A DNA stretch of 64,000 nt from an uncultured Oscillospiraceae bacterium. Lineage in GTDB: Bacteria; Bacillota; Clostridia; Christensenellales; CAG-314. Each line of letters opens with the position of its first letter. Position 1 is the stretch's first letter. Location of the stretch: the NCBI GenBank assembly GCA_964533825.1, contig CAZHMU010000003.1, positions 90,964 to 154,963 of the forward strand, written 5' to 3'. Both the position numbers and the translations under genes were made by a program. Shown one piece after another: positions 8,220 to 55,628 of this stretch. Under the pieces are notes generated by a model. That model worked only from the letters and a program-made list of their open reading frames with translations, was not told the origin of the DNA and searched no databases.

Positions 8220-8257
8220 AATAGTTATCCTTCCTTATGGGGGTATTGTTCTTACAG

Positions 8258-8845: not shown

Positions 8846-9075
8846 TTTTTAGTAATCGTTTGGGGCGGTGGGCTACGTTTTTGTTCGTAGCCTACCGCAA
8901 GATTGTCAGTTAAGGGTCTGTGCGTACTTTGTGCTTGTACTCCTTGTGAGCTAAAAGCTTTTGCACTATGCGCCATGTTGTGATAAATCGCAACGCTCAC
9001 GGAGCAATCGGCACTCGCGTACCCCCAAGCGAGCTTTTAGATACGCTTCGTTTGATTATCTACAGGCTCTTTTAC

Positions 9076-10563: not shown

Positions 10564-10578
10564 AGAATTTTCTCCGTT

Positions 10579-12606: not shown

Positions 12607-12629
12607 ATATGCATTCTCCATATCAAATC

Positions 12630-31428: not shown

Positions 31429-32403
31429 TTAGTTTTTCTTTTTGTTTTTGCGGTTGTATTGCTCGGTGCCTTCCAAAAGGATGGGTTTGAAGAAGTAAGG
31501 ATAGTTGTTTGACTCGTAGTACAAAACGAAGTTCAAGCACTTGATTACATAGAACAACACAAAGTTTACAACTGTCGAAAGGGAAAGTGAAATCCAGCGG
31601 TTTTCGTTGAAAAGATAGGCAACGGCTGTCAAAACTGTCATTACCACTATCACTATCAATGTGTGCAAAAATACTTTGCCAAAGTGCTTGATGGCAAGGG
31701 ACAAGCCTTCACCAAAGGCTGTACCCACCTTTTTAGCATCGTCGTTGTACACAACGGATGGCAAACAAAATGCCATAAATGCATGTCTGATTGCATACAA
31801 AAGCACCGCGATTACAAGTACAGGGATGATTGCTCCCCAACCAAAGATGAACATACAAATTGTTGCCATTGCAACGCTTCCTGCAACAATCAAGGTGTCA
31901 AACACGATGGAAAGCAACATTTGCCATCCCACAAATGCCACCGATTTACCCGCCTTTTTGAGCAAGAACCAGGTAAACGGACGTGCTGTGTTGGAACTCA
32001 TAAATTCGTCAATTTGGTAGCCGACAGCAATGTCGGTAAAAGATACCAAAAAGCGGTAAAGCAAGTATGCAAAAAGACAGATGATGACGGATACTTCCAC
32101 ACGGTTCCACATATTGGGCACCGACTCGATAGCAGTCTTGATACTGTCAACAAGACCTTTGAGGTCTTCGTTGATGAAGTGGTCAACGTTGAAAGTGCCG
32201 TTCAACAATGCTTGTACAGAGTGGGCAATGGTATCGCTTACACCATTGGTTTGAAATGCGTTCAAAACGTCTTCGGCAAGCGAACCAAATGCAAAGAATG
32301 CCAAAGCCAAAAACAACCCAAGTGACAAAAATTGGAACATTAAAGACTTTAGAAAAGCCTTCCAGTTGACAAGGGCTATGCGTAGAGTTTTACCAAATAA
32401 CAT
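31429..32403 (-). CDS. Polytopic membrane protein, unknown function
   Basis: 324 aa with about 6 TM segments. AAGGAGGG SD. Lys-rich C-terminus. Confidence 0.6.
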   Translation of the reverse strand: MLFGKTLRIALVNWKAFLKSLMFQFLSLGLFLALAFFAFGSLAEDVLNAFQTNGVSDTIAHSVQALLNGTFNVDHFINEDLKGLVDSIKTAIESVPNMWNRVEVSVIICLFAYLLYRFLVSFTDIAVGYQIDEFMSSNTARPFTWFLLKKAGKSVAFVGWQMLLSIVFDTLIVAGSVAMATICMFIFGWGAIIPVLVIAVLLYAIRHAFMAFCLPSVVYNDDAKKVGTAFGEGLSLAIKHFGKVFLHTLIVIVVMTVLTAVAYLFNENRWISLSLSTVVNFVLFYVIKCLNFVLYYESNNYPYFFKPILLEGTEQYNRKNKKKN

Positions 32404-32415
32404 TGTTTGCCCTCC

Positions 32416-33231
32416 TTAGCCGATGAGTACGCGAGAGATATCTTTACGCTCGCTACCGAGTGTTTTGTGATGAATCGTAAATGCCATGCAAGGCACGTAG
32501 TAGATGACAAATGCAAAGAACAATCCGTGAACAACGTTGCTGATTACTGGCACAACGTAGTCCAAGGCTACAACCAACGCTTGAATAAGTGTGTAGGCAA
32601 TGGCGTGTCCAACGCAAAGTTTGGTGTGTTTGGACATTTCGCGGATGGAGTAGGACAATGCAACGTTAAATGGGTAGCTCTCCGAGTAGGAAAGCGGAAA
32701 GCAAAGTAGCATAAGCATCCAGACGTACACTGTCACGCCGATATCCATACACAAAAGCACAAGACCGATGACGATGACGGCGTTCATTGGCAAAAATTTG
32801 CCAAGCACCCACAAAATACCAAATGTTACAAATTGCAAAAGTTGCAATGCCACAGCAAAGCAAGCGCAAAAAATAAGCATTGATGGCATAACTTTCATTG
32901 CACTTTTCAAGGGGAATACAACAAATCCGCCAACACGCATATGACGAGACACCTTTACAACCAACCAGCTAAATGTGATTGACAAAAGCACCAAGGAAAT
33001 AAGTCCGTACCACCAAGCATCAGCTTGACGAATCAGTGACATACCGTTCATCATTTCCGCAAGGTAGGTTTCTTCCGTAAGGTTGCCTCTTATCCAATCT
33101 TGCAAAAAGACTGTTTCGTTGCTGAAATTGGCAAAAATTGCCATAAAAACGGCAACAGGTAGTACGATGTAGATGTACTTCCAAAAGTTTCTAAAAAAGT
33201 AGGATATTGCTGATGAACTTTGATATCTCAT
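32416..33231 (-). CDS. Polytopic membrane protein, unknown function
   Basis: Start trimmed to 33231 (MRYQSSSAISYFF...) with GGAGGAGG SD. About 6 TM segments. Confidence 0.6.
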   Translation of the reverse strand: MRYQSSSAISYFFRNFWKYIYIVLPVAVFMAIFANFSNETVFLQDWIRGNLTEETYLAEMMNGMSLIRQADAWWYGLISLVLLSITFSWLVVKVSRHMRVGGFVVFPLKSAMKVMPSMLIFCACFAVALQLLQFVTFGILWVLGKFLPMNAVIVIGLVLLCMDIGVTVYVWMLMLLCFPLSYSESYPFNVALSYSIREMSKHTKLCVGHAIAYTLIQALVVALDYVVPVISNVVHGLFFAFVIYYVPCMAFTIHHKTLGSERKDISRVLIG

Positions 33232-33372: not shown

Positions 33373-33404
33373 ATAAAAAACGGAGTGGCGATTTGTCCAC
33401 TCCG
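33373..33404 (-). terminator. Rho-independent terminator closing the phage-like operon
   Basis: Minus strand: CGGAGTGG-(8 nt)-CCACTCCG followed by TTTTTTATT. Confidence 0.8.
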
Positions 33405-33460
33405 TTAGTTTGAGTTTGTTTGATATCTCGGTAATCAACGATACATTGTGTTCTGTACGC

Positions 33461-34390
33461 CTATTCCGGAAGGTTGTTTATGATCCAGCTGGTCAAGGAT
33501 GGGTAGTAGTCACCAAGATGGGTGGAAAGAAAGCTGTCACTTCCCACCACGTACAACGCTTCTTCCTGCCTCCAGCCGATAAAATACTGCTTGCAGTAGT
33601 TGTACTTTTCCGAAATCTTTTGCGATTCTACACCACTTTCGCCCAGTTCGGCATACAGTTGGGCGGCTTTCAATGCACGTTCGTACTCTGCTTGGCGAGC
33701 ATACTCCAATGCCTTTTGGCAACTGGCTTGGTACTTTGTTTCCTTTTCCGAAAGGGCTGTGTTGTACTTGGTGATGCGCTCCTCGTCCTTTTGCTCGCGG
33801 TACAAAAGTTCTTGATAACGTTCTTGGATGCGGAGCGCCAACTCCTCATCAAGAGAATTCAAGCCTTGTGTGTAGCGGTTTTCCAGCTCTTCCAGTTGCA
33901 CATCCACCGCATCCAGCAAACTGTCGTAGTGAATGATACTTTGGGATACTTGGTCGTTGTAGTCGGACAACGCATCATCGTTGGCTTTGGTTACTACCGA
34001 CGAAAAAATCAGTCCATTGTTGATAAGTTTACGGCGGAGTGTTTTGACTTCCGCATTGTATTTGTCCAACAACTCCGCAAGCTTTTTGCGCGAGCTTTCC
34101 GTAAGGCGCAGTTTTTGCGCTTCGTAGCCCTGTTTTGTGCGCAGGTAGCTCTGCTCGAAATTGCGCACTTTGTTTGTGTGGTTGGGGGTTACGTCAGCAG
34201 TGGCAAGTGCCAACAGTTCTTCCTCCGTTTTGGGGACGTACTCCATAGGCTCAAGTCCTAACGTTGGGGGCAGGTCGAGCTGTGGCTCTTGGTAATTGAG
34301 TGAATACTTTTTGTCAATGTCCAAGATGGTGTCCTTCAAATCTTGGTACATAGTGATTAGCTCTTGAGCGCGTTCGGTAGTGATACTCAT
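33461..34390 (-). CDS. Phage-cluster protein, coiled-coil rich, unknown function
   Basis: 309 aa. Its ATG overlaps the upstream stop (ATGA). Long heptad-like E/K/L/Q-rich stretches. Confidence 0.55.
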   Translation of the reverse strand: MSITTERAQELITMYQDLKDTILDIDKKYSLNYQEPQLDLPPTLGLEPMEYVPKTEEELLALATADVTPNHTNKVRNFEQSYLRTKQGYEAQKLRLTESSRKKLAELLDKYNAEVKTLRRKLINNGLIFSSVVTKANDDALSDYNDQVSQSIIHYDSLLDAVDVQLEELENRYTQGLNSLDEELALRIQERYQELLYREQKDEERITKYNTALSEKETKYQASCQKALEYARQAEYERALKAAQLYAELGESGVESQKISEKYNYCKQYFIGWRQEEALYVVGSDSFLSTHLGDYYPSLTSWIINNLPE

Positions 34391-35592
34391 ACTGATACCT
34401 CACTTGTGCGCGCTGTCAAAGAGAGCTGTTTGACAGACATTGCGCCGTTGGAGTGCAACTCCACTGTGATATGCTTGCCGTACCCCACCAAAAGCAAGGA
34501 TTGAGGAGTATCCTTGCCCTTTAGATTGTAGATACGACGTGCGTTGGACACAATGTGCACATCCACATCCGCTGCCGTTTGCACAATTAGCCTGTGCAGG
34601 TGTTTGGTTGTGAGTTTGTCATCAAAGTTAATGGGTTGGCTTGTCCAATGGCATTGTTGGCGAGTAGACGCAAGTTCGAAGCCATTTTCGCCATCACTTG
34701 TCAACAAACTTATGCCGTTGGACATGGCTGCGTTTACCTTTGCTTGATGTACGGACACAACCTTGCCACTGTGGGGATTGTGGGATGTGGCGGTATGTGT
34801 ACCGTCCGTTTGTCCAAAGAGATAGTACAAGCCTTTGTGCATTATGGCACATGTGGGCGTTGTATCCGTTTGCGCGATAACTTTCAAATTGCCGTTTTGC
34901 AGTGCCATAATGTTTCCGTTGGCTACAAACAAAATTTTGTTGCCGTAGGAACAAACTGTTTGTGGGTGCACCACTCCAACGCTTGTGCAAAGCTTTTTGA
35001 TTTGGATATCCGTCATTTCGCCATCCATTTGCAGTTTGTAGATGTTGTCGCCCACTGCGTACAACTCGCCATTGTTGACCAGCGCAACGCACTCGGTGGG
35101 CAAATCCACCCAAATGTCATCGGCAAAGGTTGTTTCCGTTGGGTTGGACATATACACGCGCTTGCCAGCAAGAGCAAAAAGTCTGCTTTGACAAAAGGCA
35201 AGGCTGTCCGCTTGAATGTCAGCAATTTTTTTGGGGTTGCCACTGAAAATTGTGTAGACGGCATTGTTGCCACTGACGGCCAAAGTGTTTGTGTTGTGGT
35301 CAAACGCCCAAACAACACTTTGGCAACCTGCCAGCTGCGGAAATGTTCGCACGCCCATTGTTAAACCTGTAGCTTTCAACGCTACTTGCTCGCCACCAAC
35401 AATTGCAAGGTACTGCAAAATACCATCGTCCTTTTGCACAAAGGCGCCAGCGTAATTCAAGCCGTTTGTAAATTGCACATTTGAGCAAGCTTGCATCACA
35501 ATTTTGCCTTTGGAACTTTGTGTAGAACAAAAGTCAGCAACGGCAGTGACACTGGCACCTTTTTTGAGTTTTTTGTGTGTTGGAAATATCAC
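34387..35592 (-). CDS. Phage-cluster protein, unknown function (repetitive beta-rich sequence)
   Basis: A GTG start at 35592 overlaps the upstream TGA (GTGA) and is preceded by AAGGAGGTG. The track start at 35649 has no SD. Confidence 0.55.
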   Translation of the reverse strand: MIFPTHKKLKKGASVTAVADFCSTQSSKGKIVMQACSNVQFTNGLNYAGAFVQKDDGILQYLAIVGGEQVALKATGLTMGVRTFPQLAGCQSVVWAFDHNTNTLAVSGNNAVYTIFSGNPKKIADIQADSLAFCQSRLFALAGKRVYMSNPTETTFADDIWVDLPTECVALVNNGELYAVGDNIYKLQMDGEMTDIQIKKLCTSVGVVHPQTVCSYGNKILFVANGNIMALQNGNLKVIAQTDTTPTCAIMHKGLYYLFGQTDGTHTATSHNPHSGKVVSVHQAKVNAAMSNGISLLTSDGENGFELASTRQQCHWTSQPINFDDKLTTKHLHRLIVQTAADVDVHIVSNARRIYNLKGKDTPQSLLLVGYGKHITVELHSNGAMSVKQLSLTARTSEVSV

Positions 35593-36146
35593 TTCCACCA
35601 CCTCCTTGCGGGCATTTTCATTGGGGAAATTTTGCGTGTTGCAATGCACAATGCATCGTGATACTTGGCAAGGTATCTTTCCATTTGCGCTTCGTCGCCG
35701 ATACTGTGAAAGTACTCGGCAAGCACGCCATAAGCAAAGGTACGTGGTGTAAGCCTTGGCGATGGTAAAACAAACTCGTCATCCCACCCTACTTGTGTGG
35801 GCAGTTTGGCATACAAAAGATTGAAGGTGCCGTTGTAGTCCACAAACAAGCCCCTTTCGGTATAGCGGAAGGGTACATCGTTGCCTTGACTGTCCGTTAG
35901 GCGGATGACTCTGTTCAAAAGCAGGTTTTGGGTATCAACGATACCATCTGCGCTTGATACAACTACTTTGCAAACGGACGTTGCCCAATTGCAGTACAAA
36001 TCTTCTAAAACCAAATTAGAAACGGTAAGCAAAAGTACTGCACAGTCGTTTTGGGCGTAGTCATCTCCTTGGTCTTGGTAGCAATCAGGTGGCAAATCCA
36101 AGTTTGCCAACTGTTTGCAAATTTTTGCTATTTGACTAACTTTCAT
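35589..36146 (-). CDS. Phage-cluster protein (position suggests head completion / adaptor)
   Basis: 185 aa with ATGA overlap to the upstream ORF. The call rests on gene order only. Confidence 0.5.
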   Translation of the reverse strand: MKVSQIAKICKQLANLDLPPDCYQDQGDDYAQNDCAVLLLTVSNLVLEDLYCNWATSVCKVVVSSADGIVDTQNLLLNRVIRLTDSQGNDVPFRYTERGLFVDYNGTFNLLYAKLPTQVGWDDEFVLPSPRLTPRTFAYGVLAEYFHSIGDEAQMERYLAKYHDALCIATRKISPMKMPARRWWK

Positions 36147-36382
36147 TGTTGCTCCTTTTTGCGAAAGTGAGTTCCTTGATTAGTGTTTTTGGGGAAAAGG
36201 AATAAAATAGAACCCTCTCCGTCTGCAACGTGCACCAGCCTTCGGCCCCGGTCGTAAACATAGTTTACTTCCACGCTTTGATTACAAACAACACACTCTG
36301 TTGTTTGCTTAACGCGTCGCGCCCAAAGTGATAGGCTTACACAAAGCACACTCATAAAAAACAAATTTTCAAGGTAACTCAA
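36143..36382 (-). CDS. Possible small phage-cluster protein
   Basis: 79-aa ORF with a TTG start and no clear SD. Retained only because it fills the gap and overlaps the next start. Confidence 0.3.
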   Translation of the reverse strand: MSYLENLFFMSVLCVSLSLWARRVKQTTECVVCNQSVEVNYVYDRGRRLVHVADGEGSILFLFPKNTNQGTHFRKKEQQ

Positions 36383-36475
36383 AAGGCAGTGTGCAAAAAC
36401 TGCTCCCCTGTGGCATTGTTGCTACTCGCATTGAGCTGGGGCGTTTTTGCAAAATTGCCTTGTTAGTGTGTTAGA

Positions 36476-37639
36476 TTACTCTTCGGTAATGCCAGTGATC
36501 ATTGCTTGGCCGATTGGGCGGTCGCAGATGAGATCGACGTACTTGACAAGTGTTGCAGAGTACACTGGTTTGCCGTTGACTTGTTTCAAAACTCGACCGT
36601 CGTCACCTTCCAACCAGCGCCAATCGCAAAGTTGATGAAGGTGGAAGTCTTTGGTGTTCAAGATGTACATTGTGCCTTCTGGACAGAAACGGTCAGCAAC
36701 AATGGGGATGCCATTGTAGCTCATAGCCTTGTAACCACCTTCCAATTCCATTACATCGTTGTTGTACTTGATACCAGAAAGGTAGTTTTGGTAAGCACGT
36801 TTTACACCTGCAGAGCACACAATGAAGTCGGCAGTAGAGCCGGAAACCTCTTCCATAGCATCGATTGCCTTTTGGATTACTGTGTCGCTGATGTACTCCG
36901 CTTCGAACTTTTGAGGTTTGAGCCACTTGTGTTCGGAACGAGAAAGTCCGTACAATGTTGCGCTGTCGCCAAAGATTGCGCCAAGACCAGTGATTTCCTT
37001 TTGGTAGCTACCTTGAACTGTCACGTAGTCGCCAGAAGCGATTGTGTTAGATGCGATTGTGCCACCGGAAACTTTGATTGTTTTGTTTTCGCGGTCAACG
37101 TCGATGATGCGACGACCGCTCAATGCGTAGCCTGTGGATGGGCTAACAAAGTCCACCACCATACCTTCCATCACGTTGCGAACTGTGTCGATTGTAATGA
37201 CGTTGCCAGTTTGGGAAACAACCTTGGCAATCACGCCTGTGCCGTCGCCAAAAAGCATACGGCCAAAGTTAAATTTGGATGCCTTTACCAGACCTTCCAT
37301 TTCCGCTTCCAAAAGGTTTACAAACGCGCCTGCGTTGTTTTCACTTGCGCGGATGGCCTTGTCGGAAATTTCGATTGTGCCGTACAAGTTTTTGAGAGTG
37401 AGCACAAATTGTGCATAGTTGTTGGATGCAGAATCTGGCAAAGTGCCATCTTCGTCACCTGCGCCGATACCACCATTGATACCAAATGGCGCAAGCTTGC
37501 GAATTTCCTTGCCCCAAACGTTAGAGGATGTTTTTTCAAAACGAGCCAAAAGTGGGTTTACGGCTGTGTTGAGTTGGTCGGCTACAACGCCGAGATAGAG
37601 TGTTTTGAGTGCGTTTTCTGCACTGCTAAGTGTGATCAT
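36476..37639 (-). CDS. Phage major capsid protein (HK97-fold type)
   Basis: 387 aa, directly after a scaffold-like gene. Start at 37639 with AAGGAGA SD. Sequence pattern ...LKNLYGTIEISDKAIRAS...GAFVNLL..E...L...FGDGTG is typical of scaffold-dependent coat proteins. Confidence 0.8.
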   Translation of the reverse strand: MITLSSAENALKTLYLGVVADQLNTAVNPLLARFEKTSSNVWGKEIRKLAPFGINGGIGAGDEDGTLPDSASNNYAQFVLTLKNLYGTIEISDKAIRASENNAGAFVNLLEAEMEGLVKASKFNFGRMLFGDGTGVIAKVVSQTGNVITIDTVRNVMEGMVVDFVSPSTGYALSGRRIIDVDRENKTIKVSGGTIASNTIASGDYVTVQGSYQKEITGLGAIFGDSATLYGLSRSEHKWLKPQKFEAEYISDTVIQKAIDAMEEVSGSTADFIVCSAGVKRAYQNYLSGIKYNNDVMELEGGYKAMSYNGIPIVADRFCPEGTMYILNTKDFHLHQLCDWRWLEGDDGRVLKQVNGKPVYSATLVKYVDLICDRPIGQAMITGITEE

Positions 37640-37705
37640 TTGATTCTCCTTGTTTAGTAGATTTTTGAGTTGATACAAAAAGTATCAGGTTTGACAACCT
37701 GTTGT

Positions 37706-38125
37706 TTACACATTGTCAAAAAGTTTTTGTGCCATCAGTGTTGCCTCTTTGATGGTCCTTGGTTTGGATGGCAATGCCAAGGACATAGACCCACCACCTG
37801 TCATCACTGTGGGTGCGGTAGGGGTTGGAGCGTATTGTTGCAGTAACTTGAGAGCAAAACTTGGGTTTTGTTCAAGAAATTGTTGCAACTGCTCGTCAGT
37901 TGGAGTTGTATCGGTGCTCAAAGGTTGGTCTTTGGGGATTGTTGCATCGACTTCGTCCGTTTGTGTGGGTGGCACGGTTTCTACCTGTTGCTCGGTGGAA
38001 GCTGTGCTTGTACCCTGTTGTTTTTGCAGAAGGGACAGTTGTTGGCACTTTTGAGTGAAGCTTTTTTCCAGTTCAGTGTAGCCTTTCAACAGTTCTTCGG
38101 CAGAGTTAAATTTTCCGTAGTCCAT
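37706..38125 (-). CDS. Phage scaffolding protein
   Basis: 139 aa. N-terminus KFNSAEELLKGYTELEKSFTQKCQ, a Gln/Thr/Pro-rich middle region, and a position between portal and capsid. Confidence 0.65.
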   Translation of the reverse strand: MDYGKFNSAEELLKGYTELEKSFTQKCQQLSLLQKQQGTSTASTEQQVETVPPTQTDEVDATIPKDQPLSTDTTPTDEQLQQFLEQNPSFALKLLQQYAPTPTAPTVMTGGGSMSLALPSKPRTIKEATLMAQKLFDNV

Positions 38126-39961
38126 TTACATTTCTCCTTGTGCGTTATTTTGCATTTGTTTGTGTTGCTCAATGTGTGCAAGCACTTTGTCGATGGTTGC
38201 TTTGTCCACAATGCCAAAGTTGGAAATAACAAAGCGTGTGTGCTCTTCCACGTGCAGTGCGTGGTCGTCCACCGGCAAAATTTGCGCTTGGTCAATGGCA
38301 ACGTTTTCGTTTTGCGCGCGGTCGATGTGCAATTGGGTGATGTCTTGGGAGTTTTCCCAGTTGCCAAAGCCCATCATAGACAAGATTTTTGCTTTGCTAC
38401 TTTCGGTGAGTTTACCTTGCTTGTCGTACAGGATGCCGGCGTTAAGCAAGTCGAAAAGCATTGTTCGGCGTGTTGCAGGGGTATCGGTAAGCTGATTTTC
38501 CGTTTCGAAAACAACGTCGTCGGAGCCGATATCGCTCCCCTTGAAGTAGAACACTTCTGCGCCCTTTTGGTTGTCCACAAAGCGCATCAGCTTGGAGTTG
38601 GTCACAAACTGCTTGTACAAGCGCAAAATGTACTTGCTTAGTTTTTTGATGCACAGTTTGACACTGTCGATGGAGCTTGCAAGGCGAGTGTCGTCCTGCT
38701 CGGCAATCAGTTGCAACGCTACGCCACTTGTGACGGTGGTTGGGGTTGTGCTGTTGCGAGCAAATTCGCTCACGCCAGAAACTGTAACAAACTCTTGCAA
38801 AAGTCTGTCTTCCTCTTGGTTGAAGTCGTGTGGCACGTCGCCCGCATCCATCAGTGATGGCTTTACTGCCCCTTGGCGATACACCAAGATTTTGCCTGGA
38901 GAAAGACCTTCTTCTTCCAAATTGTCGATGTCTACACTGCCGTCTTCCACAGTCATAACCCCCATTGCAAGGCGGTTAAGAAACTCGTGTTTGCGGTTTT
39001 TGACTGCGTTGTAGGCGCGTTGGATGGGGATGATGCGTTCCACAATGCTTGCACCCCAAAAACATCCTGGTTGCTCGGTGGAAGTTTGTTTGACAAACGG
39101 GAATGTGCGTTCCCCTTCTTCGCCAAGCACAAATGGCATTTTGCCATAGTACAGCAAGGTATTGCCAGCGACAATTTCCAACTTGCCGTTGGGGTGGTCC
39201 ATTGTAGGCTTGGTGTAGCGTTCAATTACCAACACTTGATTGGTTTTGGCTTCCTGCGTGATGCTTGGCACAGTGGAGTTGTAACCAAGTCCGCCAACAC
39301 CTGCAACGGCATTGATGTTGAACACCTTGATATCTTCCCCCTTTACATCCACACCCCAGGTATTTTTGACATCGTTTGCGTCGTACACCTTTGCGTGGAT
39401 GATGGATGAGCACTGCTCGATTGTTTGCGTTACGTTGGAGTCGGGGTAGATTTCAAATGGCGAACAAGCAATGATTGTTACGTCGCCCTTGGCATTGTCC
39501 CAAGCGATTTTGTAAAAAGCCGTTCCGCACACTTCACTCCACGATGTAACTTCAGTAATAATTTCGTCCAAGCGAGTCTTGTCGTGAACGGCATCGAGAA
39601 TTTTTGTGGAAAGCTTGGCTGATGCAATGTCCTTATCGGAGTTGGAAAAGGGGCGCGCAATGGGTTTTGGACGCACGCGATTGAGCCTTGCCAAGCGAGT
39701 TTCCACAATGGGAGCAATGTGGTTGTACACCTGTTTTTCCTGCCAGAAGTAGTATTTTTCTTCCTGCTCGATGGCGCCACGTGGTGTGATTGCGCAGTAT
39801 TGGTTACCCATCACAAAGTTCATATTCAGTTGCCACGCCAATTCGTACGGACGGCGAAAACTTTGGCGGTTTGCAAAGTCCTGTTTGACATCGGCAACAA
39901 CGTCCTCTACAAAACGTTGCTGTTGTAGTTGACGCTCCTTGGCGGTAAGTTTTTTAGTCAT
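38126..39961 (-). CDS. Phage portal protein
   Basis: About 611 aa. Start at 39961 with AGGAGG SD. ...YELAWQLNMNFVMGNQY... motif and a position after the terminase. Confidence 0.8.
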   Translation of the reverse strand: MTKKLTAKERQLQQQRFVEDVVADVKQDFANRQSFRRPYELAWQLNMNFVMGNQYCAITPRGAIEQEEKYYFWQEKQVYNHIAPIVETRLARLNRVRPKPIARPFSNSDKDIASAKLSTKILDAVHDKTRLDEIITEVTSWSEVCGTAFYKIAWDNAKGDVTIIACSPFEIYPDSNVTQTIEQCSSIIHAKVYDANDVKNTWGVDVKGEDIKVFNINAVAGVGGLGYNSTVPSITQEAKTNQVLVIERYTKPTMDHPNGKLEIVAGNTLLYYGKMPFVLGEEGERTFPFVKQTSTEQPGCFWGASIVERIIPIQRAYNAVKNRKHEFLNRLAMGVMTVEDGSVDIDNLEEEGLSPGKILVYRQGAVKPSLMDAGDVPHDFNQEEDRLLQEFVTVSGVSEFARNSTTPTTVTSGVALQLIAEQDDTRLASSIDSVKLCIKKLSKYILRLYKQFVTNSKLMRFVDNQKGAEVFYFKGSDIGSDDVVFETENQLTDTPATRRTMLFDLLNAGILYDKQGKLTESSKAKILSMMGFGNWENSQDITQLHIDRAQNENVAIDQAQILPVDDHALHVEEHTRFVISNFGIVDKATIDKVLAHIEQHKQMQNNAQGEM

Positions 39962-40175
39962 AGAGTTCCTCCTGTCTTTGGTCAAGTTTGCGTTTGATGG
40001 TGTTTTGGGGGCTTTTTGGCGTACGGCGGGAAATTGCCTCTGTTGCTAAACGCTCAAAACACTCGTCGCAAAGATAAATTTTTTGTTTGGTCAAAAGGTA
40101 GCTGGTGGCACTGTTGTTGCAACCTTTGCAACTACATTTTGCTGGAGTTGTTGATTTTTGTAGTAGTTTTGTCAT
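39954..40175 (-). CDS. Small Cys-rich (zinc-finger-like) phage-cluster protein
   Basis: 73 aa with CSCKGC...CDEC. Overlaps both neighbours. Confidence 0.45.
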   Translation of the reverse strand: MTKLLQKSTTPAKCSCKGCNNSATSYLLTKQKIYLCDECFERLATEAISRRTPKSPQNTIKRKLDQRQEELYD

Positions 40176-40480
40176 TGTTGATCCTCTTGTTGAGTGTCCA
40201 TAGGTGTGGTTTTGTCGCAGATGTCAAGTAGTTTCAAAAGGCGCAGCTTTTCCACCGCAAGTTGCTCGTCCGTCATTTTGCATACGTCCATTTCATCCTC
40301 GGAAAGTTGCAGTAGCGCTTTGATTGCGTTGACATCTGGGGGCACTTTTTTGGTGGTAATTTTGCGTTTGGAAAGTTGTACTTGTCCATTTATTGCGACG
40401 AACTCTTCCGTCTTTTCGTGGACGGTGTAGCCTTTGGCCTTTTTTAGTAAAATTTTGGTTAGAAGTTGTTTGTAGTTCAT
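40172..40480 (-). CDS. Small phage-cluster protein, possibly terminase-small-subunit-like
   Basis: 102 aa from the ATG at 40480. ...KKVPPDVNAIKALLQL... resembles the conserved PD..A motif of some TerS proteins. It lies downstream rather than upstream of terL, so the call is weak. Confidence 0.4.
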   Translation of the reverse strand: MNYKQLLTKILLKKAKGYTVHEKTEEFVAINGQVQLSKRKITTKKVPPDVNAIKALLQLSEDEMDVCKMTDEQLAVEKLRLLKLLDICDKTTPMDTQQEDQQ

Positions 40481-40485
40481 GGATG

Positions 40486-41898
40486 TTAAATCCTTTTTAG
40501 GTGGCGGATTAGACGTTCTTTGTCGGTGGCAATGATGCTTTTGGGCGTGTTTGGCTTTGGTGTTTCGTTGATGTAGCAAGCGTAGTAACGCAGTTCGTCC
40601 ATGGCGTGGTCGTCACGCTTGATGGGTTTGTCGTCATTACCCCAAAAGTAGCCTTTGATTTCCCTAATCATATTGACACAGGTGGAAAAAATGTACAGTT
40701 TGGGTGGGCCGTTTGCTGGTTTGAGCAACCCTTTGACCTTGTTGATGCCTGTGTACAAATCCTTGTTAACACGAGTGTTGATGGTGATGCCGTTATCGCT
40801 AAATAGTTCTGCAACCGACCTTTGCCCAGACAGGGTACGTTGGTTACCCGCGCTGTCCATAAGGGCGGAAATGTTGCCGAACTTGTCCTTTTTCCAGTTG
40901 AGCTTTTGGCAGATTTCCTTTATCTTTTCCGCGTGGTAGGCTACGTCCTTTTGCGCTTGGTACCACTCTGCAATGACGTACACGTTGCCGTCAAAGTCAC
41001 GGGCGTACCAGTGGCAAGAAAGGGGGTTGTTGAGTCCTGGGTCGATGGACAAAGTGTCCTGCCAGTCAAGGGGTACGTCAAATGGGGCAATGACGTTGGC
41101 ATCGCTAAACTCGGGGTATACCATACCGCCCCAACTTTGAAACTGACCATACCTGCGCGATTGCAGTTGATCGGCAGACAACGTTTGGGTCATTTCGTCA
41201 ATTTCCCTTGTGGAGAGATAGGGGTTGTCCGCCCACTCCATAAATTCGCACCATACTTGGTCGCTGTTGTGGCAGTTTTTGTAAATTTCTTCGTACACCC
41301 AGGTTAAACCTTTCAAAGGGGTCATTGTGCCAAAGATGTGCCCGCACCTGTCCAAAACACGCATACGGCACTCGTCATAGATATCCTTTGGGGGTTCTTC
41401 GTCAAACCATACAAAGTCAAGGCTTGTGCCTTGGAACTTTTCGCGACCGGCTTCGCAACTTTTGAAGGCAATTTTGCTTGTGCCACCAAAAACGTTTGCC
41501 ACTACAATGTAGTCGATGATGCCGTAGTCCATACTTTGTTTGGAACCACTTGTCATCACCGTTTGCACTATCCAATTTTTGTCCAGGTAATGCAGTATTT
41601 TTTGTTGAGCAACGTCACGTTGTACCTGTTGGGAAAGGGAAACAACCCAGCAGGACACGTCGTCCTTGTTTTGCCGAAAGGGATGGATGCCACGCGCCAG
41701 CCAGACTGTTTCCACCGCACCACACTCCGTTTTGCCACTGCGGTTGCCACCAAACACCCATCGGTTGCGTTTTAGGCAACGATGAAATGCCATTTGCTTT
41801 TGATGCACCTTGCCCTTGTTGTAGCGCGCCAAAGGGGAATTCTTGCGTCGCTTTTGCTCGCGCTGGATGTCGTTTAGTCGTTGAATTATTTGTTGCAT
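40486..41898 (-). CDS. Phage terminase large subunit
   Basis: Walker A FGGNRSGKTE, Walker B LDFVWFDEEP, and C-terminal nuclease-region DHAMDELRY. Start trimmed to the ATG at 41898. Confidence 0.85.
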   Translation of the reverse strand: MQQIIQRLNDIQREQKRRKNSPLARYNKGKVHQKQMAFHRCLKRNRWVFGGNRSGKTECGAVETVWLARGIHPFRQNKDDVSCWVVSLSQQVQRDVAQQKILHYLDKNWIVQTVMTSGSKQSMDYGIIDYIVVANVFGGTSKIAFKSCEAGREKFQGTSLDFVWFDEEPPKDIYDECRMRVLDRCGHIFGTMTPLKGLTWVYEEIYKNCHNSDQVWCEFMEWADNPYLSTREIDEMTQTLSADQLQSRRYGQFQSWGGMVYPEFSDANVIAPFDVPLDWQDTLSIDPGLNNPLSCHWYARDFDGNVYVIAEWYQAQKDVAYHAEKIKEICQKLNWKKDKFGNISALMDSAGNQRTLSGQRSVAELFSDNGITINTRVNKDLYTGINKVKGLLKPANGPPKLYIFSTCVNMIREIKGYFWGNDDKPIKRDDHAMDELRYYACYINETPKPNTPKSIIATDKERLIRHLKRI

Positions 41899-42015
41899 TT
41901 GTTTTCCTTGTGGATTTGAGTTTTGTTGAGTTGCAATAGTTGTGCTGATGTGACACAACTCGGCAAAAAAGTTGTGTACAAGTTGGTTATACTTTTTGCA
42001 ATGTCCTTTCCCGAG

Positions 42016-42052
42016 CCGTTGATTGAAACAATACTGTACTGTCAATCAACGG
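42016..42052. promoter_or_regulatory. Perfect 11-bp inverted repeat in the terL / SH3b divergent spacer
   Basis: CCGTTGATTGA-(15 nt)-TCAATCAACGG. Confidence 0.4.
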
Positions 42053-42083
42053 ACTGTTTTGGGAAAGGTTAGGAGAAAAAATT

Positions 42084-42806
42084 ATGCGAAAAGTGATGTT
42101 AGCCATTGTATTGTTGTGTTGTTGCCTTTGCCCAAAAGTTGCCTTTGCCGAAGAAGTAAAATGGGCACGTGTTGTGAGAGATGATACCTTTTTGTACGCC
42201 ACCGAAGATTGTTCAAAACAAATGTTTGAGTTGGAAAAGTCTTACTATGTGGAAATACTGGAGGAGCTTGCAAAAACCTACTTTGTCAAAGTTGACTGCC
42301 AAAGCAAGCAGTTTCCTGCATTATGTGGGTACGTTTTGAAAAACGAAGTGCAAACGTCCAGCGAATCGCCAGACAATCCGTTGTATCCTACGGAAAAGGT
42401 GATAGTAAACGGAAACTCCGCCATATTGCGCCTCTCGCCAACGCCATCTGCAGAAGTGGTTATTGTTGCTTCAAACACACAATCGTTGTGTTACTACGGC
42501 GAGATGGTAGGTTACGGCAAAAATTGGTACTACGTGTACTTTGCAGGAGAATTCGGGTACGTTTTGGCGGAAGACGTAACAGCAGTAAACGTGTCGTTGC
42601 ATCCAACACCCATTGAGGTACCACAAGATACCCCTGTGGTAGCACCACCAAGTGATGTCGTTGTGGATACCACACCAGAGCCAACAATTTCGCCAACGGC
42701 GGAAATAATCTTGACTGTGTTTGTAGCGTTGTTAGCAGTGGCAATAACATTTTCGCTGTTTTTGCCTGTCAAAAGCAAAAAGCAGGTTTTTGATGGAGAC
42801 ATATAG
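42084..42806 (+). CDS. Secreted protein with two SH3b-like domains and a C-terminal TM anchor
   Basis: Signal peptide. ...GYVLKNEV and ...NWYYVYFAGEFGYVLAEDV are SH3_3-like. A Pro/Thr linker precedes a terminal hydrophobic helix. Confidence 0.65.
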   Translation: MRKVMLAIVLLCCCLCPKVAFAEEVKWARVVRDDTFLYATEDCSKQMFELEKSYYVEILEELAKTYFVKVDCQSKQFPALCGYVLKNEVQTSSESPDNPLYPTEKVIVNGNSAILRLSPTPSAEVVIVASNTQSLCYYGEMVGYGKNWYYVYFAGEFGYVLAEDVTAVNVSLHPTPIEVPQDTPVVAPPSDVVVDTTPEPTISPTAEIILTVFVALLAVAITFSLFLPVKSKKQVFDGDI

Positions 42807-42874
42807 GGTTAGGAATGGGAAAGAGTGAATAGAGAGTAGGTGTGGACATATTTTAAGACACTTACCAAGGGCCT

Positions 42875-42902
42875 GTGTGAACTAACGCAGTTCGCTCATA
42901 TG
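42875..42902 (-). repeat. REP-like hairpin
   Basis: Minus strand reads AUAUGAGCGAAC-UGC-GUUAGUUC (7 of 8 paired). Confidence 0.5.
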
Positions 42903-43127
42903 ATTGTAAAGGTGATAAGGAAGAGTGAATAGGTGTGGATGCATTTTAGATGACCTTGCTAATATGCACAATTACTGCAGGTTAGTGTTGTTTTTTTGCA
43001 GACGTGTTAAATTTCCTTTTCTATTATCTATTCTCTTTTGTTTCTCGGCTTCACCCTTGTATGGCACTGTTGTAGGAAATACTCTTTACGCAATGAAGGT
43101 TGCTTTCCAAGATTTAGCCAAGGACTG

Positions 43128-43158
43128 TATGCGGTCGTCCAATGACCGCCCCTACACC
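43128..43158 (-). repeat. REP-like hairpin
   Basis: Minus strand reads GUAGGGGCGGUC-AUUGGAC-GACCGC (6 bp). Confidence 0.5.
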
Positions 43159-43370
43159 CGCTCCGTCACGCTACGCGCGCCACCTCTCCCAGAGTGAGAG
43201 GCTGTTTACCTTAAAAAGCAGTCAAAACTCAATACATACCCACAAAAATGCAAATTTAGGGGGTTAGTTGCACCACTTAAGTCCAGAGCAATCCAACGCG
43301 GACATCTCAAATTGTTTCCGTCACAATACGGTTGATTTGCGCAACATTTATAGCAACAATATGCGCTATG

Positions 43371-43838
43371 TTAAAAGGATATCGGCCGACCTTTGCCACT
43401 ACTTTTGAGTTGCTCGCCCACCCAATGTACCGACTGGTAGTTGTTTGCAAGCCACTTTTCGTCCATACCAAGATGCTCAAGTTTACTTCTAAACATCTTG
43501 CGCGCTTTACTTAGGTAGCGGTACAATGTTGAAAGGGAAATTCCGTACTTTTGGCAAATGGTAAGCTTGTCGGTGTTGTGCAAATACACTTCACAAATGA
43601 GCGCTCGGTAACCCTTTGGCGTGAGTTGCAAAGCGTGCGCTACGCCGTTGTAAAAACGCAGGCAGCTGTCGCGTTTCTCGGTGTAGTTGCAGATTGCCTC
43701 CACCTGCCCCATTGTGCCATCTCGCCAGTTGGCTGTAGAATAGGACTTGAGCGCCAACGTTTTGATTGTTTTGTTGAATTCTTGAGCGGATTGTTTCATA
43801 CGCAATGCACCGCGTAGCATCACTAATTCGTGATTCAT
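43371..43838 (-). CDS. Sigma-70 region-4-like / ArpU-RinA-like phage late transcriptional regulator
   Basis: 155 aa from the ATG at 43838 with GGAGGTG SD. C-terminal HTH ...ICQKYGISLSTLYRYLSKARKMF. Size and position are typical of late activators upstream of packaging genes. Confidence 0.5.
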   Translation of the reverse strand: MNHELVMLRGALRMKQSAQEFNKTIKTLALKSYSTANWRDGTMGQVEAICNYTEKRDSCLRFYNGVAHALQLTPKGYRALICEVYLHNTDKLTICQKYGISLSTLYRYLSKARKMFRSKLEHLGMDEKWLANNYQSVHWVGEQLKSSGKGRPISF

Positions 43839-44337: not shown

Positions 44338-46215
44338 ATGAAAAAACTGCTTTTAACTTTGATATGTGTACTTGTTGTTGCGCTATGTTTGCCAACCTTT
44401 GCTTTGGCGGACACCACTACTGCGCAAGCCAACGACGTACACTTCATAGCGCCAACGGGCATTGCACTTGTGGGCGACTACTTGCTCGTGAGCGACAGCG
44501 TGGCAGACAACCAAAGTGCAATTTTGTGCTTTGACGTTGCAAACGGAAACGCACACGTGTTTACACATCTACTTGACAAGCAAGCAACAAATTTGTCCAG
44601 CTCCAATGGACGTTTGTTCGTCATCTTTGCTGACAGCTTTGTTGAGTACGCCATTGCCGATGACAACAAATCCCTTGTGGAAGTGGAAACATTTGCCTTT
44701 GAGAACGTAATTGACGTTTGTGTGGGCAAGCTCGATCTTGATGGCTCCATAAAGGACACTATCTACTTCCTGCAAAAAGGCACAAACGGAGACTCTCTAA
44801 AACGTGTCAAGGATGACAAATCCGCTGGAACAATCAATGGAATGTCGGTAGCAAACGCTTTCAGTTGCTTGTCAATGAGTGATGGAACAAACAACTATGT
44901 TTACATTTCTGGCAAAAATGCTGACGAAACAAACTCCATTACACGTTATGGCTGCGTCTGGGATTGGGATATCGAAGGCGACAAACTCAATGCTAATGGC
45001 GTAAGTTACGCAGGCACATTTGAGCTTTTGGGACTTGCCACAAACAATCGTGAGTACCCTGTTGTATATGGCGCAAAATCTATGTACAACCTTAACTTTG
45101 ACGGCAACAGTGCTTACGTTGCTACACAAGGTTTTGAAGACTTTTCCGCACAAGAGTACAGATTCATCAAAGTGACAAGCAACCAAAATTATTTTGTCAT
45201 TTTGAACGATAACAACCAAATCAACATTTTTGAGCTTGTAGAAAAGAATGGCGAGCCTGCGTTGAGCGACAACAGCTCCACCATCGGTAGCGACCTTGTA
45301 AAAACGGCCGTTCCCACCACTTACACAAGTTTTACGTTGGCAAAGTCTACCGGATACCCAACAAACATCGTCTACAAAACAAATGATGGCGATACATCAA
45401 TCGAAAGCATCTTGACAAACGACCAAGTGCAAGAATTTGTAATTTTGGGTTACAGTGGATACGAAGATGCAAGCTACTACTACGTTTTTGTAAACGGCAA
45501 GTTTGGTTGGATCAAAAAGAGTGATGACGCAACAACACCTGACACTGACGCCAAAATTGAAGTTGTTGATACAAAAGTTAGCGACAAAGTGACATACAAC
45601 GCAAAGTTTAACTCTCTGGGTATGGTGCACATCTACAACCTACCTTCGTCCGACAAAACTGTCCGCAAAGAATTGGAGCAAGTACAGCAAACTGCATCAA
45701 GCATGACGAGCGTAAAAATCTTGCAACAATTTAAGGAGACGGAAAAAAACATTGTTTGGTACTACGTTGAGTACGGACAAGGCAAGTATGGTTTTGTAAA
45801 GAGCAGTGACGTTGGACAATTTACTGCAACTTTGGCAGAACCTGTGGATGCGGTTGTTACAAAGCAAGTAAATGCATCGTTGTTTAATGCTGTAACATTG
45901 CACATGACAAAGGATCTTGACCCCGAAACAGTTTTGACCTACGATGGCAACAGCGAAAACCTTGTAAAACTGTACTCTGGCGACTGGGTAAATGTCATCG
46001 AAGTGGACGAAGAATCTGGCGCAAGTTTTGTTCAGGTTCTGGACCCCAACGGCAACGACCATATTTATGGTTGGGTGGAAACAGCTCGACTTGCGGACAT
46101 CAACGCCATCACAACTAATGCAGTTGTTGGTTTTGTCGCATTGGGCATTGCCATTGTACTTGCGATTGTGTTCTGCACTGTGTTTGTAAGCCGCAAAAAG
46201 AAAGCAAACAAATAA
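44338..46215 (+). CDS. Large secreted protein with a beta-propeller-like N-terminal region, three SH3b-like domains and a C-terminal TM anchor
   Basis: Signal peptide ...PTFALA. SH3b-like segments read YYYVFVNGKFGWIKKSD, WYYVEYGQGKYGFVKSSDV and IYGWVETARL. Terminal helix AVVGFVALGIAIVLAIVFCTVFV followed by RKKKANK. Confidence 0.7.
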   Translation: MKKLLLTLICVLVVALCLPTFALADTTTAQANDVHFIAPTGIALVGDYLLVSDSVADNQSAILCFDVANGNAHVFTHLLDKQATNLSSSNGRLFVIFADSFVEYAIADDNKSLVEVETFAFENVIDVCVGKLDLDGSIKDTIYFLQKGTNGDSLKRVKDDKSAGTINGMSVANAFSCLSMSDGTNNYVYISGKNADETNSITRYGCVWDWDIEGDKLNANGVSYAGTFELLGLATNNREYPVVYGAKSMYNLNFDGNSAYVATQGFEDFSAQEYRFIKVTSNQNYFVILNDNNQINIFELVEKNGEPALSDNSSTIGSDLVKTAVPTTYTSFTLAKSTGYPTNIVYKTNDGDTSIESILTNDQVQEFVILGYSGYEDASYYYVFVNGKFGWIKKSDDATTPDTDAKIEVVDTKVSDKVTYNAKFNSLGMVHIYNLPSSDKTVRKELEQVQQTASSMTSVKILQQFKETEKNIVWYYVEYGQGKYGFVKSSDVGQFTATLAEPVDAVVTKQVNASLFNAVTLHMTKDLDPETVLTYDGNSENLVKLYSGDWVNVIEVDEESGASFVQVLDPNGNDHIYGWVETARLADINAITTNAVVGFVALGIAIVLAIVFCTVFVSRKKKANK

Positions 46216-46635: not shown

Positions 46636-47301
46636 CTACTGCACTGCGGTCAAAATTGTAGGCGTGTCCGCTTGTGGCAGGCTGTCGCAGTTTTCTGCAA
46701 GATTGAGCTTGGTTACGGACACTTCGTAGGTGGTACGAGTATCCACAGTGCCATCGTCAAGGCGCTTTTGGTACTCGCGCGATTGCACACGACCCACGAT
46801 GTGAATATGTTCGCCCACTGGTAAAGTGCTGGCAAAACGCGCCGTACGCCCCCAAATGATGCAAGGGATGTAGTCACTTTTGTTGTATGGACGATTGACC
46901 GCCAAAAGGACATCGCAAATTTCGCGATTAAAGGGGGTTGTGCGGTAAACTGGTGTTTTGCAGATGTAACCATCAAGTTCCATTGTGTTGGGGTTGATGG
47001 TGTCATCGTAGGGCAAAATGTCCTGTACAAACACTGTCAAAAGCAGTTTGGAGTGGGTATCCACCAGTTTGTTGTAACTGCGCAGTTGTCCCACCACTGT
47101 AATTTTGTTACCATCCGCAATAAGGTCGGACAAAAGGTGCTCAGACAAAGAGATGGGCAAAAGGTCGTTGTTGCCGGAAAGACGTGGCACGGACAGTTGC
47201 AAAATGTAAAATTTTTCGCCAAATACGGTGTGCGAGTAGGTGGCATTGCCCACCACTGTGCCTGTCAAGACCACTTTGTTGTTAGTTGCGTTTGTGTTCA
47301 T
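46636..47301 (-). CDS. SSB-family protein with two tandem OB-fold-like halves
   Basis: The first half reads NKVVLTGTVVGNATYSHTVFGEKFYILQLSVPR... The second half reads ...LDGYICKTPVYRTTPFNREICDVLLAVNRPYNKSDYIPCIIWGR...GRVQSREY. Both resemble Clostridial SSB-like OB proteins. Confidence 0.55.
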   Translation of the reverse strand: MNTNATNNKVVLTGTVVGNATYSHTVFGEKFYILQLSVPRLSGNNDLLPISLSEHLLSDLIADGNKITVVGQLRSYNKLVDTHSKLLLTVFVQDILPYDDTINPNTMELDGYICKTPVYRTTPFNREICDVLLAVNRPYNKSDYIPCIIWGRTARFASTLPVGEHIHIVGRVQSREYQKRLDDGTVDTRTTYEVSVTKLNLAENCDSLPQADTPTILTAVQ

Positions 47302-48318: not shown

Positions 48319-48987
48319 TTATACACCCAAACGTTCTCTCATATCGTTGAGCATTTCTCCATTATATTTGAAAAATCTTGGGCCAGCAATGGGCGCAGAG
48401 TGATCTAAATTCATAATGATTCTTGCAACCATAGTCAAAGACATAACTTCGCCATTGAACTCAACCTTCTTATCGTCCACTACCGTACAGAAAATACTTT
48501 CGTCTTTGAAATATGTAATTTTTGCACCAATAGGGATATTTACCATTGCAAAAGAAAATGGCTTTGCTCTTTCGCGAGATTCTTCGGCAATGGTCGCAGC
48601 GACATTAGTCTCTGCCTCTTGTTCAGCAGATGGCTTAATTAGTTTCAGTCTATCGGTTGTCCCATGTATTTCTGCCATTGCTTCAAATAAACGATAAGCT
48701 TCCTCAGGCAACATCGCAAAAAATTCCCTCTTGCGTTTTTTACCTGCCACAGTATCAATGGCACGCAAATTAGGATTCAATAACTCGATAATCTCATGGA
48801 GTTTCATATCTGTTAATCGATTGTCTACTTCATAAGTTGCATAAACTCTAAACGCAAATGGAGTGCACTCGCTACGGTTTAGTTGTGCAAGTCTGGTATC
48901 CATATCGTCTGCATAACCAATTTTTACATACTCTTCAAAAGATGGGTTGGTCAGTATGTAAATTACGCCTTTCTTTTCTTTTGTCAT
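48319..48987 (-). CDS. GIY-YIG / T5orf172-domain protein with a C-terminal DUF4357-like region
   Basis: GVIYILTNPSFEEYVKIGYADD...RLAQLN matches the T5orf172 (MUG113) pattern. By eye the gene is AT-richer than its neighbours. Confidence 0.65.
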   Translation of the reverse strand: MTKEKKGVIYILTNPSFEEYVKIGYADDMDTRLAQLNRSECTPFAFRVYATYEVDNRLTDMKLHEIIELLNPNLRAIDTVAGKKRKREFFAMLPEEAYRLFEAMAEIHGTTDRLKLIKPSAEQEAETNVAATIAEESRERAKPFSFAMVNIPIGAKITYFKDESIFCTVVDDKKVEFNGEVMSLTMVARIIMNLDHSAPIAGPRFFKYNGEMLNDMRERLGV

Positions 48988-55338: not shown

Positions 55339-55628
55339 ATTTGTCCATTATTGACTATGGTAACACACTGCAAGCCCTTTTGTCAAGTAGCCATGGAAAT
55401 ATATAGTATATTATTTATACTATCCACTGTCGTTGAAAATGCCGTCTAACCACATAAAAGAGGATGGCTAAATAATGGGACAAGCAAGTTAAAATGAGTC
55501 AACGCCTAAAGGCTAAGTACGTGAGCACTTTGACGCAACCATAACAAGCGACAAAATGCCTTTGGTGAGGCGGATATTCAATGATTAAGTAGCGCAAAAA
55601 CTGTCAATACTTGATACGAGGTGAAAAT

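Follow-up and report, generated by a model that had tools for sequence, protein, structure and literature searches.

Genes of the operon

The chromosomal locus described here lies in a 64,000-nucleotide stretch of the genome of an uncultured Oscillospiraceae bacterium (contig CAZHMU010000003.1 of assembly GCA_964533825.1, positions 90,964 to 154,963), placed by GTDB in the order Christensenellales, family CAG-314. Within this stretch, called the window and numbered from its first letter, positions 33461-41898 of the reverse strand hold a co-directional operon of nine phage packaging, head and neck genes. In 5' to 3' order these are terL, a candidate small terminase (TerS), a Cys-rich open reading frame (ORF), portal, a candidate scaffolding protein, major capsid protein, head-to-tail adaptor, tail nozzle, and a DUF7934 protein. 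An earlier note, made from the letters of the window alone, had described a co-directional packaging and head operon of ten ORFs at this place; scans of the cluster proteins with Pfam, PHROGs and NCBIfam profiles support the operon through family matches for TerL, portal and major capsid, and nine of the ten ORFs stand. Four-nucleotide start/stop overlaps occur at 34387-34390, 35589-35592 and 40172-40175, where the note had seen them, and the Cys-rich ORF and the portal gene likewise join in a start/stop overlap, ATGACTAA. The further overlap that had been placed at 36143 lies at the end of the one ORF judged spurious. The operon closes at an intrinsic terminator on the same strand (33379-33406), a 10-bp stem with six GC pairs followed by a T-run, within a few bases of the strong terminator claimed at 33373-33404; downstream of it, a TTGAAA-17-TATAAT promoter and a ribosome-binding site (RBS) serve the next operon. 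Counts of loci given below come from a sample of 82 fetched loci.

TerL (40486-41898; 470 aa from a refined start at 41898) matches Terminase_6N (7e-14), Terminase_6C (6e-7) and phrog_2 (2e-32). Across 65 loci its Walker A, Walker B and C-motif positions are each at least 86% conserved, and the key residues (Gly, Lys and Thr of Walker A, Asp and Glu of Walker B, the nuclease Asp, and the coupling motif) are invariant. The next gene (40172-40480, start refined to 40480) encodes a 102-aa protein whose position makes it a candidate small terminase. A weak match to the terS family phrog_309 (1.5e-4) is the only one it has; no DNA-binding domain is recognizable in it, and the profile of its family, found in 70 loci, gives no match against PDB. 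It is followed by a 73-aa Cys-rich protein (39954-40175) with a zinc-ribbon-like CxCxxC...CxxC pattern, the family of which is found in 68 loci; its gene overlaps both neighbors by start and stop codons.

The portal protein (38126-39961; 611 aa from a refined start at 39961) is of the P22/SU10 type, matching P22_portal (5e-21) and phrog_156 (2e-35), and its sole sequence match in PDB is the portal of podovirus GP4. Between portal and capsid genes, at 37706-38125, lies a gene for a helical, Gln/Glu/Thr/Pro-rich protein of 139 aa. It has no database match, its family is found in 77 loci, and its position and composition suggest a candidate scaffolding protein. A 6-bp stem-loop with a T-rich tail stands between the scaffold and capsid genes (37686-37701), and may set the ratio of scaffold to capsid expression.

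The major capsid protein (36476-37639; 387 aa from a refined start at 37639, in an ORF of 400 aa) is assigned with strong scores for NF033394 capsid_maj_Podo (8.7e-88) and phrog_14242 (1.5e-68). It is 59-89% identical across Christensenellales. The capsid profile finds no sequence homolog in PDB, so no triangulation number can be inferred. By capsid sequence, the nearest sequenced phages are those of Arthrobacter and Microbacterium, at 25-31% identity, which gives little information on origin. The spacer that follows the capsid gene, 36147-36475, is non-coding. The tenth ORF of the earlier note, 36143-36382, was rejected as a gene, as it starts with TTG, lacks an RBS, and has no homolog in any locus, that of the closest relative included. 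An unrelated family of genes encoding 85-140 aa fills the same position in 50 other loci, and no trace of that family is found in the window.

Adaptor and nozzle revealed by predicted structure

The gene after the spacer, 35589-36146, encodes a protein of 185 aa whose AlphaFold2 model (pLDDT 88.3), searched with Foldseek, identifies it as a head-to-tail adaptor. Nearly all of the top 26 PDB matches of the model come from portal-tail, neck or tail reconstructions of podoviruses, and those matches that carry an annotation are adaptor or tail tubular protein A chains; the structures include Pa223, N4, A4, SU10, the PhiM1 adaptor, crAss001, GP4, T7 gp11 and KP32. Sequence search against PDB gives no match for this protein, and hhalign comparison of its family to T7 gp11 returns a probability of 0.2. 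The following gene, 34387-35592 (start refined to 35592), encodes a 401-aa beta-propeller protein recognized in the same way as the tail nozzle (pLDDT 87.8), with all of the top nine PDB matches being chains of podovirus portal-tail or nozzle reconstructions; matches include VP1 (1e-13, TMq 0.70), Pa223, GP4, the PhiM1 nozzle, Pam1 and T7. A tblastn search with the nozzle against 50,697 phage genomes found no match. The nozzle gene is the fastest-evolving of the operon, with 20-59% identity between species. Sequence-based methods detected neither assignment; adaptor and nozzle were identified by structure prediction alone.

The last gene of the operon, 33461-34390, encodes a 309-aa protein that matches Pfam family DUF7934 (6e-27). 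Its profile gives only weak, non-significant matches against PDB, the best at an E-value of 0.04 and most of them to helical or coiled-coil chains, and the protein is probably a coiled coil. The family is found in 63 loci, with other genes standing in its place in one sub-lineage, and its alignment lacks any conserved stretch. We regard it as a candidate distal tail or other particle-associated part. Of the unknown ORFs of the earlier note, structure prediction resolved two, the adaptor and the nozzle. The note had seen no recognizable tail; that statement falls with the adaptor and nozzle. The cluster encodes a head, a packaging motor and, judged by predicted folds, a closed portal-adaptor-nozzle neck of the short podovirus type. 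No fibers, ejection proteins or lysis genes are recognizable in the cluster.

A fixed locus that diverges with its flanking genes

Relatives of the capsid protein number in the thousands. The best 120 are 73-100% identical, all of them 386-389 aa in length, and sit on chromosomal contigs of up to 1.1 Mb in metagenome-assembled genomes (MAGs) of Clostridia. A single scan found a capsid relative in 271 GTDB species-representative genomes. Named carriers include Candidatus Fimimonas (87%), Candidatus Heteroclostridium, Candidatus Limihabitans and Christensenellaceae. Candidatus Fimimonas corresponds to GTDB CAG-1435, order Christensenellales, family CAG-314, with genomes of about 1.4 Mb; NCBI taxonomy puts it in Myxococcaceae, against the GTDB placement, and this difference probably explains the label 'Corallococcus sp.' on several of the Clostridia MAGs behind loci L003, L009, L011, L015, L020 and L023.

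The operon is flanked on one side by rnj, an O-methyltransferase gene and a U32 peptidase gene, and on the other by a gene for an SSB-like protein, a polysaccharide deacetylase gene, ispDF, recR and dnaX, so that the housekeeping flanks reported in the earlier note are as it gave them. In genomes whose capsid is 74-78% identical the neighborhood is collinear, running from deacetylase and SSB through the operon to rnj, methyltransferase and U32. The rnj gene was detected in 35 loci, in every one downstream of the operon and on its strand, and SSB in 21, in every one upstream. The block occupies the same locus with the same flanks in dozens of species. Capsid and portal identities rise and fall with the identities of the flanking genes (Spearman 0.64-0.86), and over the same 31 loci the mean identity is 72% for the capsid vs. 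64% for RNase J.

Against four relatives, the approximate ratio of nonsynonymous to synonymous substitution rates (dN/dS) falls at 0.05-0.28 for every gene of the operon, in the range of purifying selection, and at a similar 0.06-0.12 for rnj, U32 and the O-methyltransferase; within the operon it is 0.06-0.09 for terL, 0.06-0.07 for portal and 0.05-0.22 for the TerS candidate. Once genes cut by contig ends are excluded, all 80 loci have an intact, full-length capsid gene, 70 of 71 an intact portal gene and 64 of 66 an intact terL, which extends to relatives (about 97-100% of loci) the observation that no large ORF is visibly disrupted in the window. Families of the TerS candidate, Cys-rich protein, scaffold, adaptor, nozzle, DUF7934, the sigma-like protein and the SH3 protein described below were detected with iterative profiles in 58-77 of the 82 loci, almost all of those whose contig extends far enough.

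Scans with Pfam and PHROGs of most ORFs of at least 120 aa across the window gave no match to an integrase, repressor, replication protein, tape-measure protein, holin or lysin, extending to the full 64 kb what the note had reported for the nearer surroundings. The locus has no att-like repeats and no adjacent tRNA. A scan of IMG/VR turned up this same chromosomal module in short pieces only, some of them bordered by the same host genes; no complete phage with the module came up. We are highly confident that the cluster is vertically inherited and kept by selection. Its features (a structural cluster in the chromosome that lacks replication, integration and lysogeny-control genes, inherited vertically at a conserved locus, with intact genes under purifying selection) are among those expected of a gene transfer agent (GTA).

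A regulator candidate and a conserved motif upstream of terL

Upstream of the operon, at 43371-43838 on the reverse strand, lies a gene for a 155-aa protein that the earlier note had named as a candidate sigma- or ArpU-like late regulator. A profile of its family, built from 30 loci, supports this at the level of sigma region 4: against PDB it matches region 4 of SigF, of extracytoplasmic function sigma factors and of SigW, with E-values of 2e-6 to 1e-4, in addition to weak matches to phrog_248 and TIGR02937. Homologs occur upstream of terL in 58 loci, and the protein is a candidate for a dedicated activator of the operon. Between it and terL, on the opposite strand as the note had it, a gene at 42084-42806 encodes a protein with a signal peptide, SH3b domains (Pfam SH3_3), a Pro/Thr linker, and a C-terminal membrane anchor. 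Its family, found in 60 loci, takes this place and orientation in the inspected layouts, and is fast-evolving (21-77% identity).

A 17-nucleotide motif, TTTTGCCGAGTTGTGTC, lies at 41952-41968 on the reverse strand, 54 nucleotides upstream of the start of terL, and has no other exact copy in the window. Its core, TTTGCCGAGTT[GA]TGT, occurs exactly once per locus of about 20 kb in each of 16 loci, all from different species, always on the strand of terL and at or just upstream of its start. A relaxed version is found in 22 of 62 regions upstream of terL, vs. a background of 0.035 per 300 nucleotides; apart from the motif, the intergenic DNA before terL cannot be aligned from one species to another. 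Because the motif is conserved and specific to the operon, regulated expression from one dedicated promoter is suggested, and the motif is a candidate promoter or operator, which we infer would be served by the neighboring sigma-like protein. For genome searching the motif takes the form TTTGCCGAGTTRTGT. A metagenome-wide scan for a co-regulated second locus gave a real cluster in one of the 120 matches listed, the rest being chance.

Adjoining the regulator is a fast-evolving 625-aa surface protein (44338-46215) with a signal peptide, GW/SH3-like repeats and a C-terminal membrane anchor; its place is taken in L121 and L124, both of them distant relatives, by a giant ORF of about 10,000 aa. 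The 625-aa GW/SH3 protein and the 240-aa SH3 protein were considered as lysins but not assigned that role, as each has a signal peptide and a C-terminal membrane anchor and neither has a match to a catalytic domain.

Other features of the window

Right after the operon terminator, with a strong promoter of their own, come genes for two multi-pass membrane proteins (31429-32403 and 32416-33231), with about six transmembrane segments each and no Pfam or PHROG match. The pair occupies the same position in 35-44 loci, and one distant relative has in its place a protein with two transmembrane segments that is weakly holin-like. On the other side of the operon, the SSB-like protein (46636-47301) carries an N-terminal extension of about 100 aa and has its best match in phrog_26861 (1.7e-34) rather than in the standard SSB family. 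It evolves slowly, is syntenic with the module in all 21 loci where it was detected, and may represent a second SSB; a tie to the particle system or to DNA uptake would be speculative.

Between the polysaccharide deacetylase gene and ispDF, in a dip to 37% GC, lies an ORF with a T5orf172 (GIY-YIG-like) domain (48319-48987). No relative of it was detected in any fetched locus, and L001 has a gene with HTH_31/HTH_3 domains just past its deacetylase gene, so the ORF looks like a lineage-specific insertion. Farther away, a run of large reverse-strand ORFs at 6042-12621, of 725 aa and 225 aa (no match), 495 aa (Listeria-Bacteroides repeat) and 680 aa (RHS repeats and DUF2963), looks like a surface or toxin cluster. 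The window also encodes a 592-aa GH28-like beta-helix protein (1247-3025) and an 872-aa ORF (55611-58229) that matches neither Pfam nor PHROGs.

Variation between lineages

More distant lineages have extra tail genes between nozzle and DUF7934, encoding either proteins of 340-390 aa or pairs of about 800 and about 670 aa, one member of which matches a PHROG tail protein family (5302, 2e-28). In L121, a protein weakly matching Phage_holin_1 is encoded next to the tail genes, before rnj. The lineage of the window is the most reduced version, lacking both the small post-capsid gene and the extra tail gene that relatives keep. A related cluster is found in a cultured species, Maliibacterium massiliense, with a capsid protein (WP_162990927.1) 44% identical to that of the window; at that locus the adaptor and nozzle genes are accompanied by an 807-aa ORF and DUF7934.

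Comparison with known systems

The closest counterpart in the literature is operon I of FpGTA from Faecalibacterium prausnitzii, a chromosomal operon of ten genes and 10.5 kb that yields tail-less-looking particles of 40 nm, each with about 9 kb of host DNA (Nat Commun 2026, PMC12946183). Fibers, a receptor-binding protein, holin and endolysin of FpGTA are encoded in a second operon about 125 kb away (PMC12946183). Resemblance to the cluster extends to an operon of about 10 kb and about ten genes, a gut Clostridia host, an origin from short-tailed phages, the absence of integrase and replication genes, and wide presence in the host clade, where FpGTA is nearly ubiquitous. Gene order, taken for FpGTA from the proteomics table of the paper (PMC12946183), matches that of the cluster and its relatives: TerL, portal, a gene in the scaffold position, capsid, a small ORF, adaptor, nozzle, and finally, after further genes, a charged and abundant protein annotated as 'TolA'. 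The two nevertheless differ. FpGTA belongs to a host in Oscillospirales, the cluster to Christensenellales; the FpGTA capsid is N4-gp56 by annotation, whereas that of the cluster is NF033394 with no N4-gp56 match at E <= 0.01; and a gene annotated as Prp-like lies between portal and capsid in FpGTA, where the gene of the cluster has no Pfam match. The lineage of the window has neither the small post-capsid ORF nor a gene between the nozzle gene and the last one, the window shows no counterpart of operon II, and the cluster is known from its genes, while particles have been shown for FpGTA. Judged by annotation names, the proteins do not appear to be orthologous; the cluster is best described as an analog of FpGTA, possibly a distant relative, and not as a member of the FpGTA family.

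GTAs of the RcGTA type, from Alphaproteobacteria, are likewise vertically inherited structural clusters under purifying selection and without replication or integration genes, and share with the cluster a small TerS-like protein that lacks an evident DNA-binding domain. Both are proposed to have a dedicated regulator that carries a sigma-like domain, GafA in the case of RcGTA. RcGTA, however, resembles a siphovirus: it has a long tail, a tape measure and head spikes, and none of its proteins is related to those of the cluster; random packaging, a small capsid and competence-gene transfer are demonstrated there and inferred only here. With podovirus machines (T7 gp8/gp11/gp12, GP4, VP1, Pa223, SU10) the cluster shares the adaptor and nozzle folds and, with T7, the order capsid, adaptor, nozzle, but the sequences share only 8-15% identity, T7 gp12 is twice as large as the nozzle, and internal core proteins, fibers, tailspikes and a surrounding phage genome are absent. 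Capsid-forming phage-inducible chromosomal islands (cf-PICIs) are similarly small and likewise bring a terminase, portal, scaffold and capsid of their own; they are mobile, integrase-bearing, helper-dependent and patchy in distribution, in contrast to a cluster that is fixed and syntenic, has no integrase, and brings its own adaptor and nozzle.

No description of the Christensenellales cluster was found in the literature. GTA-like packaging has been reported for two Christensenellaceae MAGs, HGM11616 (reads of about 4 kb) and QANA01 (about 6.3 kb), with no locus named (PMC12946183). The cluster is the obvious candidate locus.

Interpretation and rival readings

The reading we favor, and consider reasonably probable, is that the cluster is domesticated, derived from a podovirus, fixed in the Christensenellales chromosome, and most likely a GTA (viriform). 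That it packages and transfers random host DNA is a proposal to which we give slightly better than even chances. Three readings had been offered in the earlier note, namely a domesticated GTA-like particle, a cf-PICI-like satellite and a prophage remnant. The first is now favored by synteny, co-divergence, purifying selection and intactness, and the other two lose ground with the lack of any integrase, att site, or sign of mobility or decay. More broadly, the fixed locus, co-divergence, purifying selection and missing mobility genes contradict a decaying prophage as much as an active phage or a satellite, and a domesticated particle therefore remains.

Several points weigh against the GTA reading. 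For the source organism, particles, their packaged DNA and its transfer are predictions from genes, and a small capsid is presumed. No fiber, receptor-binding or lysis genes turned up in the 64-kb window. Synonymous divergence (dS) is 0.6-2.5, near saturation, which makes the dN/dS values approximate. In two loci terL is split into two overlapping ORFs (L065, 5327-6755; L075, 5367-6850), which could reflect assembly error or a real loss of function. The sigma-like protein matches region 4 only, and its tie to the upstream motif is putative.

A domesticated particle may have been kept for some other use, such as a killing particle, a programmed way for a lysing subpopulation to release DNA or other cell contents, or a decoy against related phages, and this we hold to be a minority possibility deserving attention. 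A role as killing particle has reportedly been proposed for PBSX. The evidence of domestication is the same for such uses as for a GTA and does not separate them; no receptor-binding or fiber genes are recognizable, and the lineage of the window does without the 340-820 aa tail genes of its relatives. The strict conservation of TerL ATPase and nuclease motifs and of the portal, on the other hand, suggests that packaging itself is under selection, and nozzle and DUF7934 are fast-evolving, as host-contact parts of infective particles usually are. We know of no killing mechanism, moreover, for a tail-less or short-tailed capsid. Delivery of DNA is left open even for the particles of FpGTA (PMC12946183), which gives the alternative uses some room. 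The cluster might otherwise supply the structural part of a phage that is split but functional, or serve as a helper resource, with replication, lysis and fibers encoded elsewhere and a specific replicon or satellite as the preferred cargo. The distant second operon of FpGTA (PMC12946183) sets a precedent for such a division, the distant relative L121 has its weak Phage_holin_1 protein adjoining the tail genes, and the genome was inspected over 64 kb only. A phage that still replicates and moves would, however, not be expected to show synteny across an order and co-divergence with housekeeping genes. None of the inspected loci has a replication or integration gene close to the cluster, and IMG/VR gave short fragments of the same chromosomal module only. 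We consider a split phage improbable.

An ordinary defective prophage, well preserved by chance, would also lack integrase, replication and lysis genes, and the loss of the small post-capsid gene and the extra tail gene in the lineage of the window would fit such a remnant. The earlier note had reasoned that a decaying prophage should be missing from close relatives, leave att-like junctions and have degenerate copies elsewhere; the relatives instead carry the block at the same locus, with no att junctions, about 97-100% intact and with dN/dS of 0.05-0.28. The capsid is more conserved than RNase J, and patchiness, pseudogenes and relaxed selection were not seen, so a chance survivor is very unlikely. 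Hardly tenable at all is a cf-PICI-like satellite whose integration module was lost or relocated. The compact size, about 10 kb, and the possession of terminase, portal, scaffold and capsid genes agree with one, but no integrase, att site, alpA or primase-replicase module, or other sign of mobility is found, the position is fixed with vertical inheritance across an order, and the cluster encodes an adaptor and nozzle of its own, where cf-PICIs rely on the tails of helper phages.

If the favored reading, a GTA, is correct, the sigma-region-4-like protein (43371-43838) would switch on the promoter marked by the motif at 41952-41968. The nine-gene operon would then yield scaffold-assisted capsids with a P22-type portal, as homology of the parts indicates, the head presumably being small. 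TerL, perhaps with the 102-aa TerS candidate, would pack headfuls of DNA; its motifs are intact, and host DNA is the putative substrate. Adaptor and nozzle, going by their folds, would close the portal and form a stubby tail, to which DUF7934 may add a further particle or tail-tip part. Release and attachment functions are not in the operon, and would be located elsewhere or supplied by unrecognized neighbors.

Significance

Very few gene transfer agents have been described, most of them from Alphaproteobacteria. Christensenellales is a heritable, health-associated order of the gut. A podovirus-like GTA in gut Clostridia was first reported in 2026 (PMC12946183). The cluster described here is a concrete candidate locus, conserved across Christensenellales, and the cultured relative Maliibacterium massiliense carries a related one. 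It is tempting, although we would put the chances somewhat below even, to see in it the source of the Christensenellaceae packaging detected in virus-like particles from human feces: an ancient, order-wide, nine-gene minimal GTA of podovirus type, with its own sigma-like factor acting through a conserved promoter motif. If that is true, the cluster and FpGTA would be the first two GTA lineages known with a short tail, both of them in abundant gut anaerobes. If active, the cluster would add a major route of gene flow between gut anaerobes that has so far gone uncounted, and would show that genomes reduced as strongly as these, to about 1.4 Mb, still bear the cost of keeping it.

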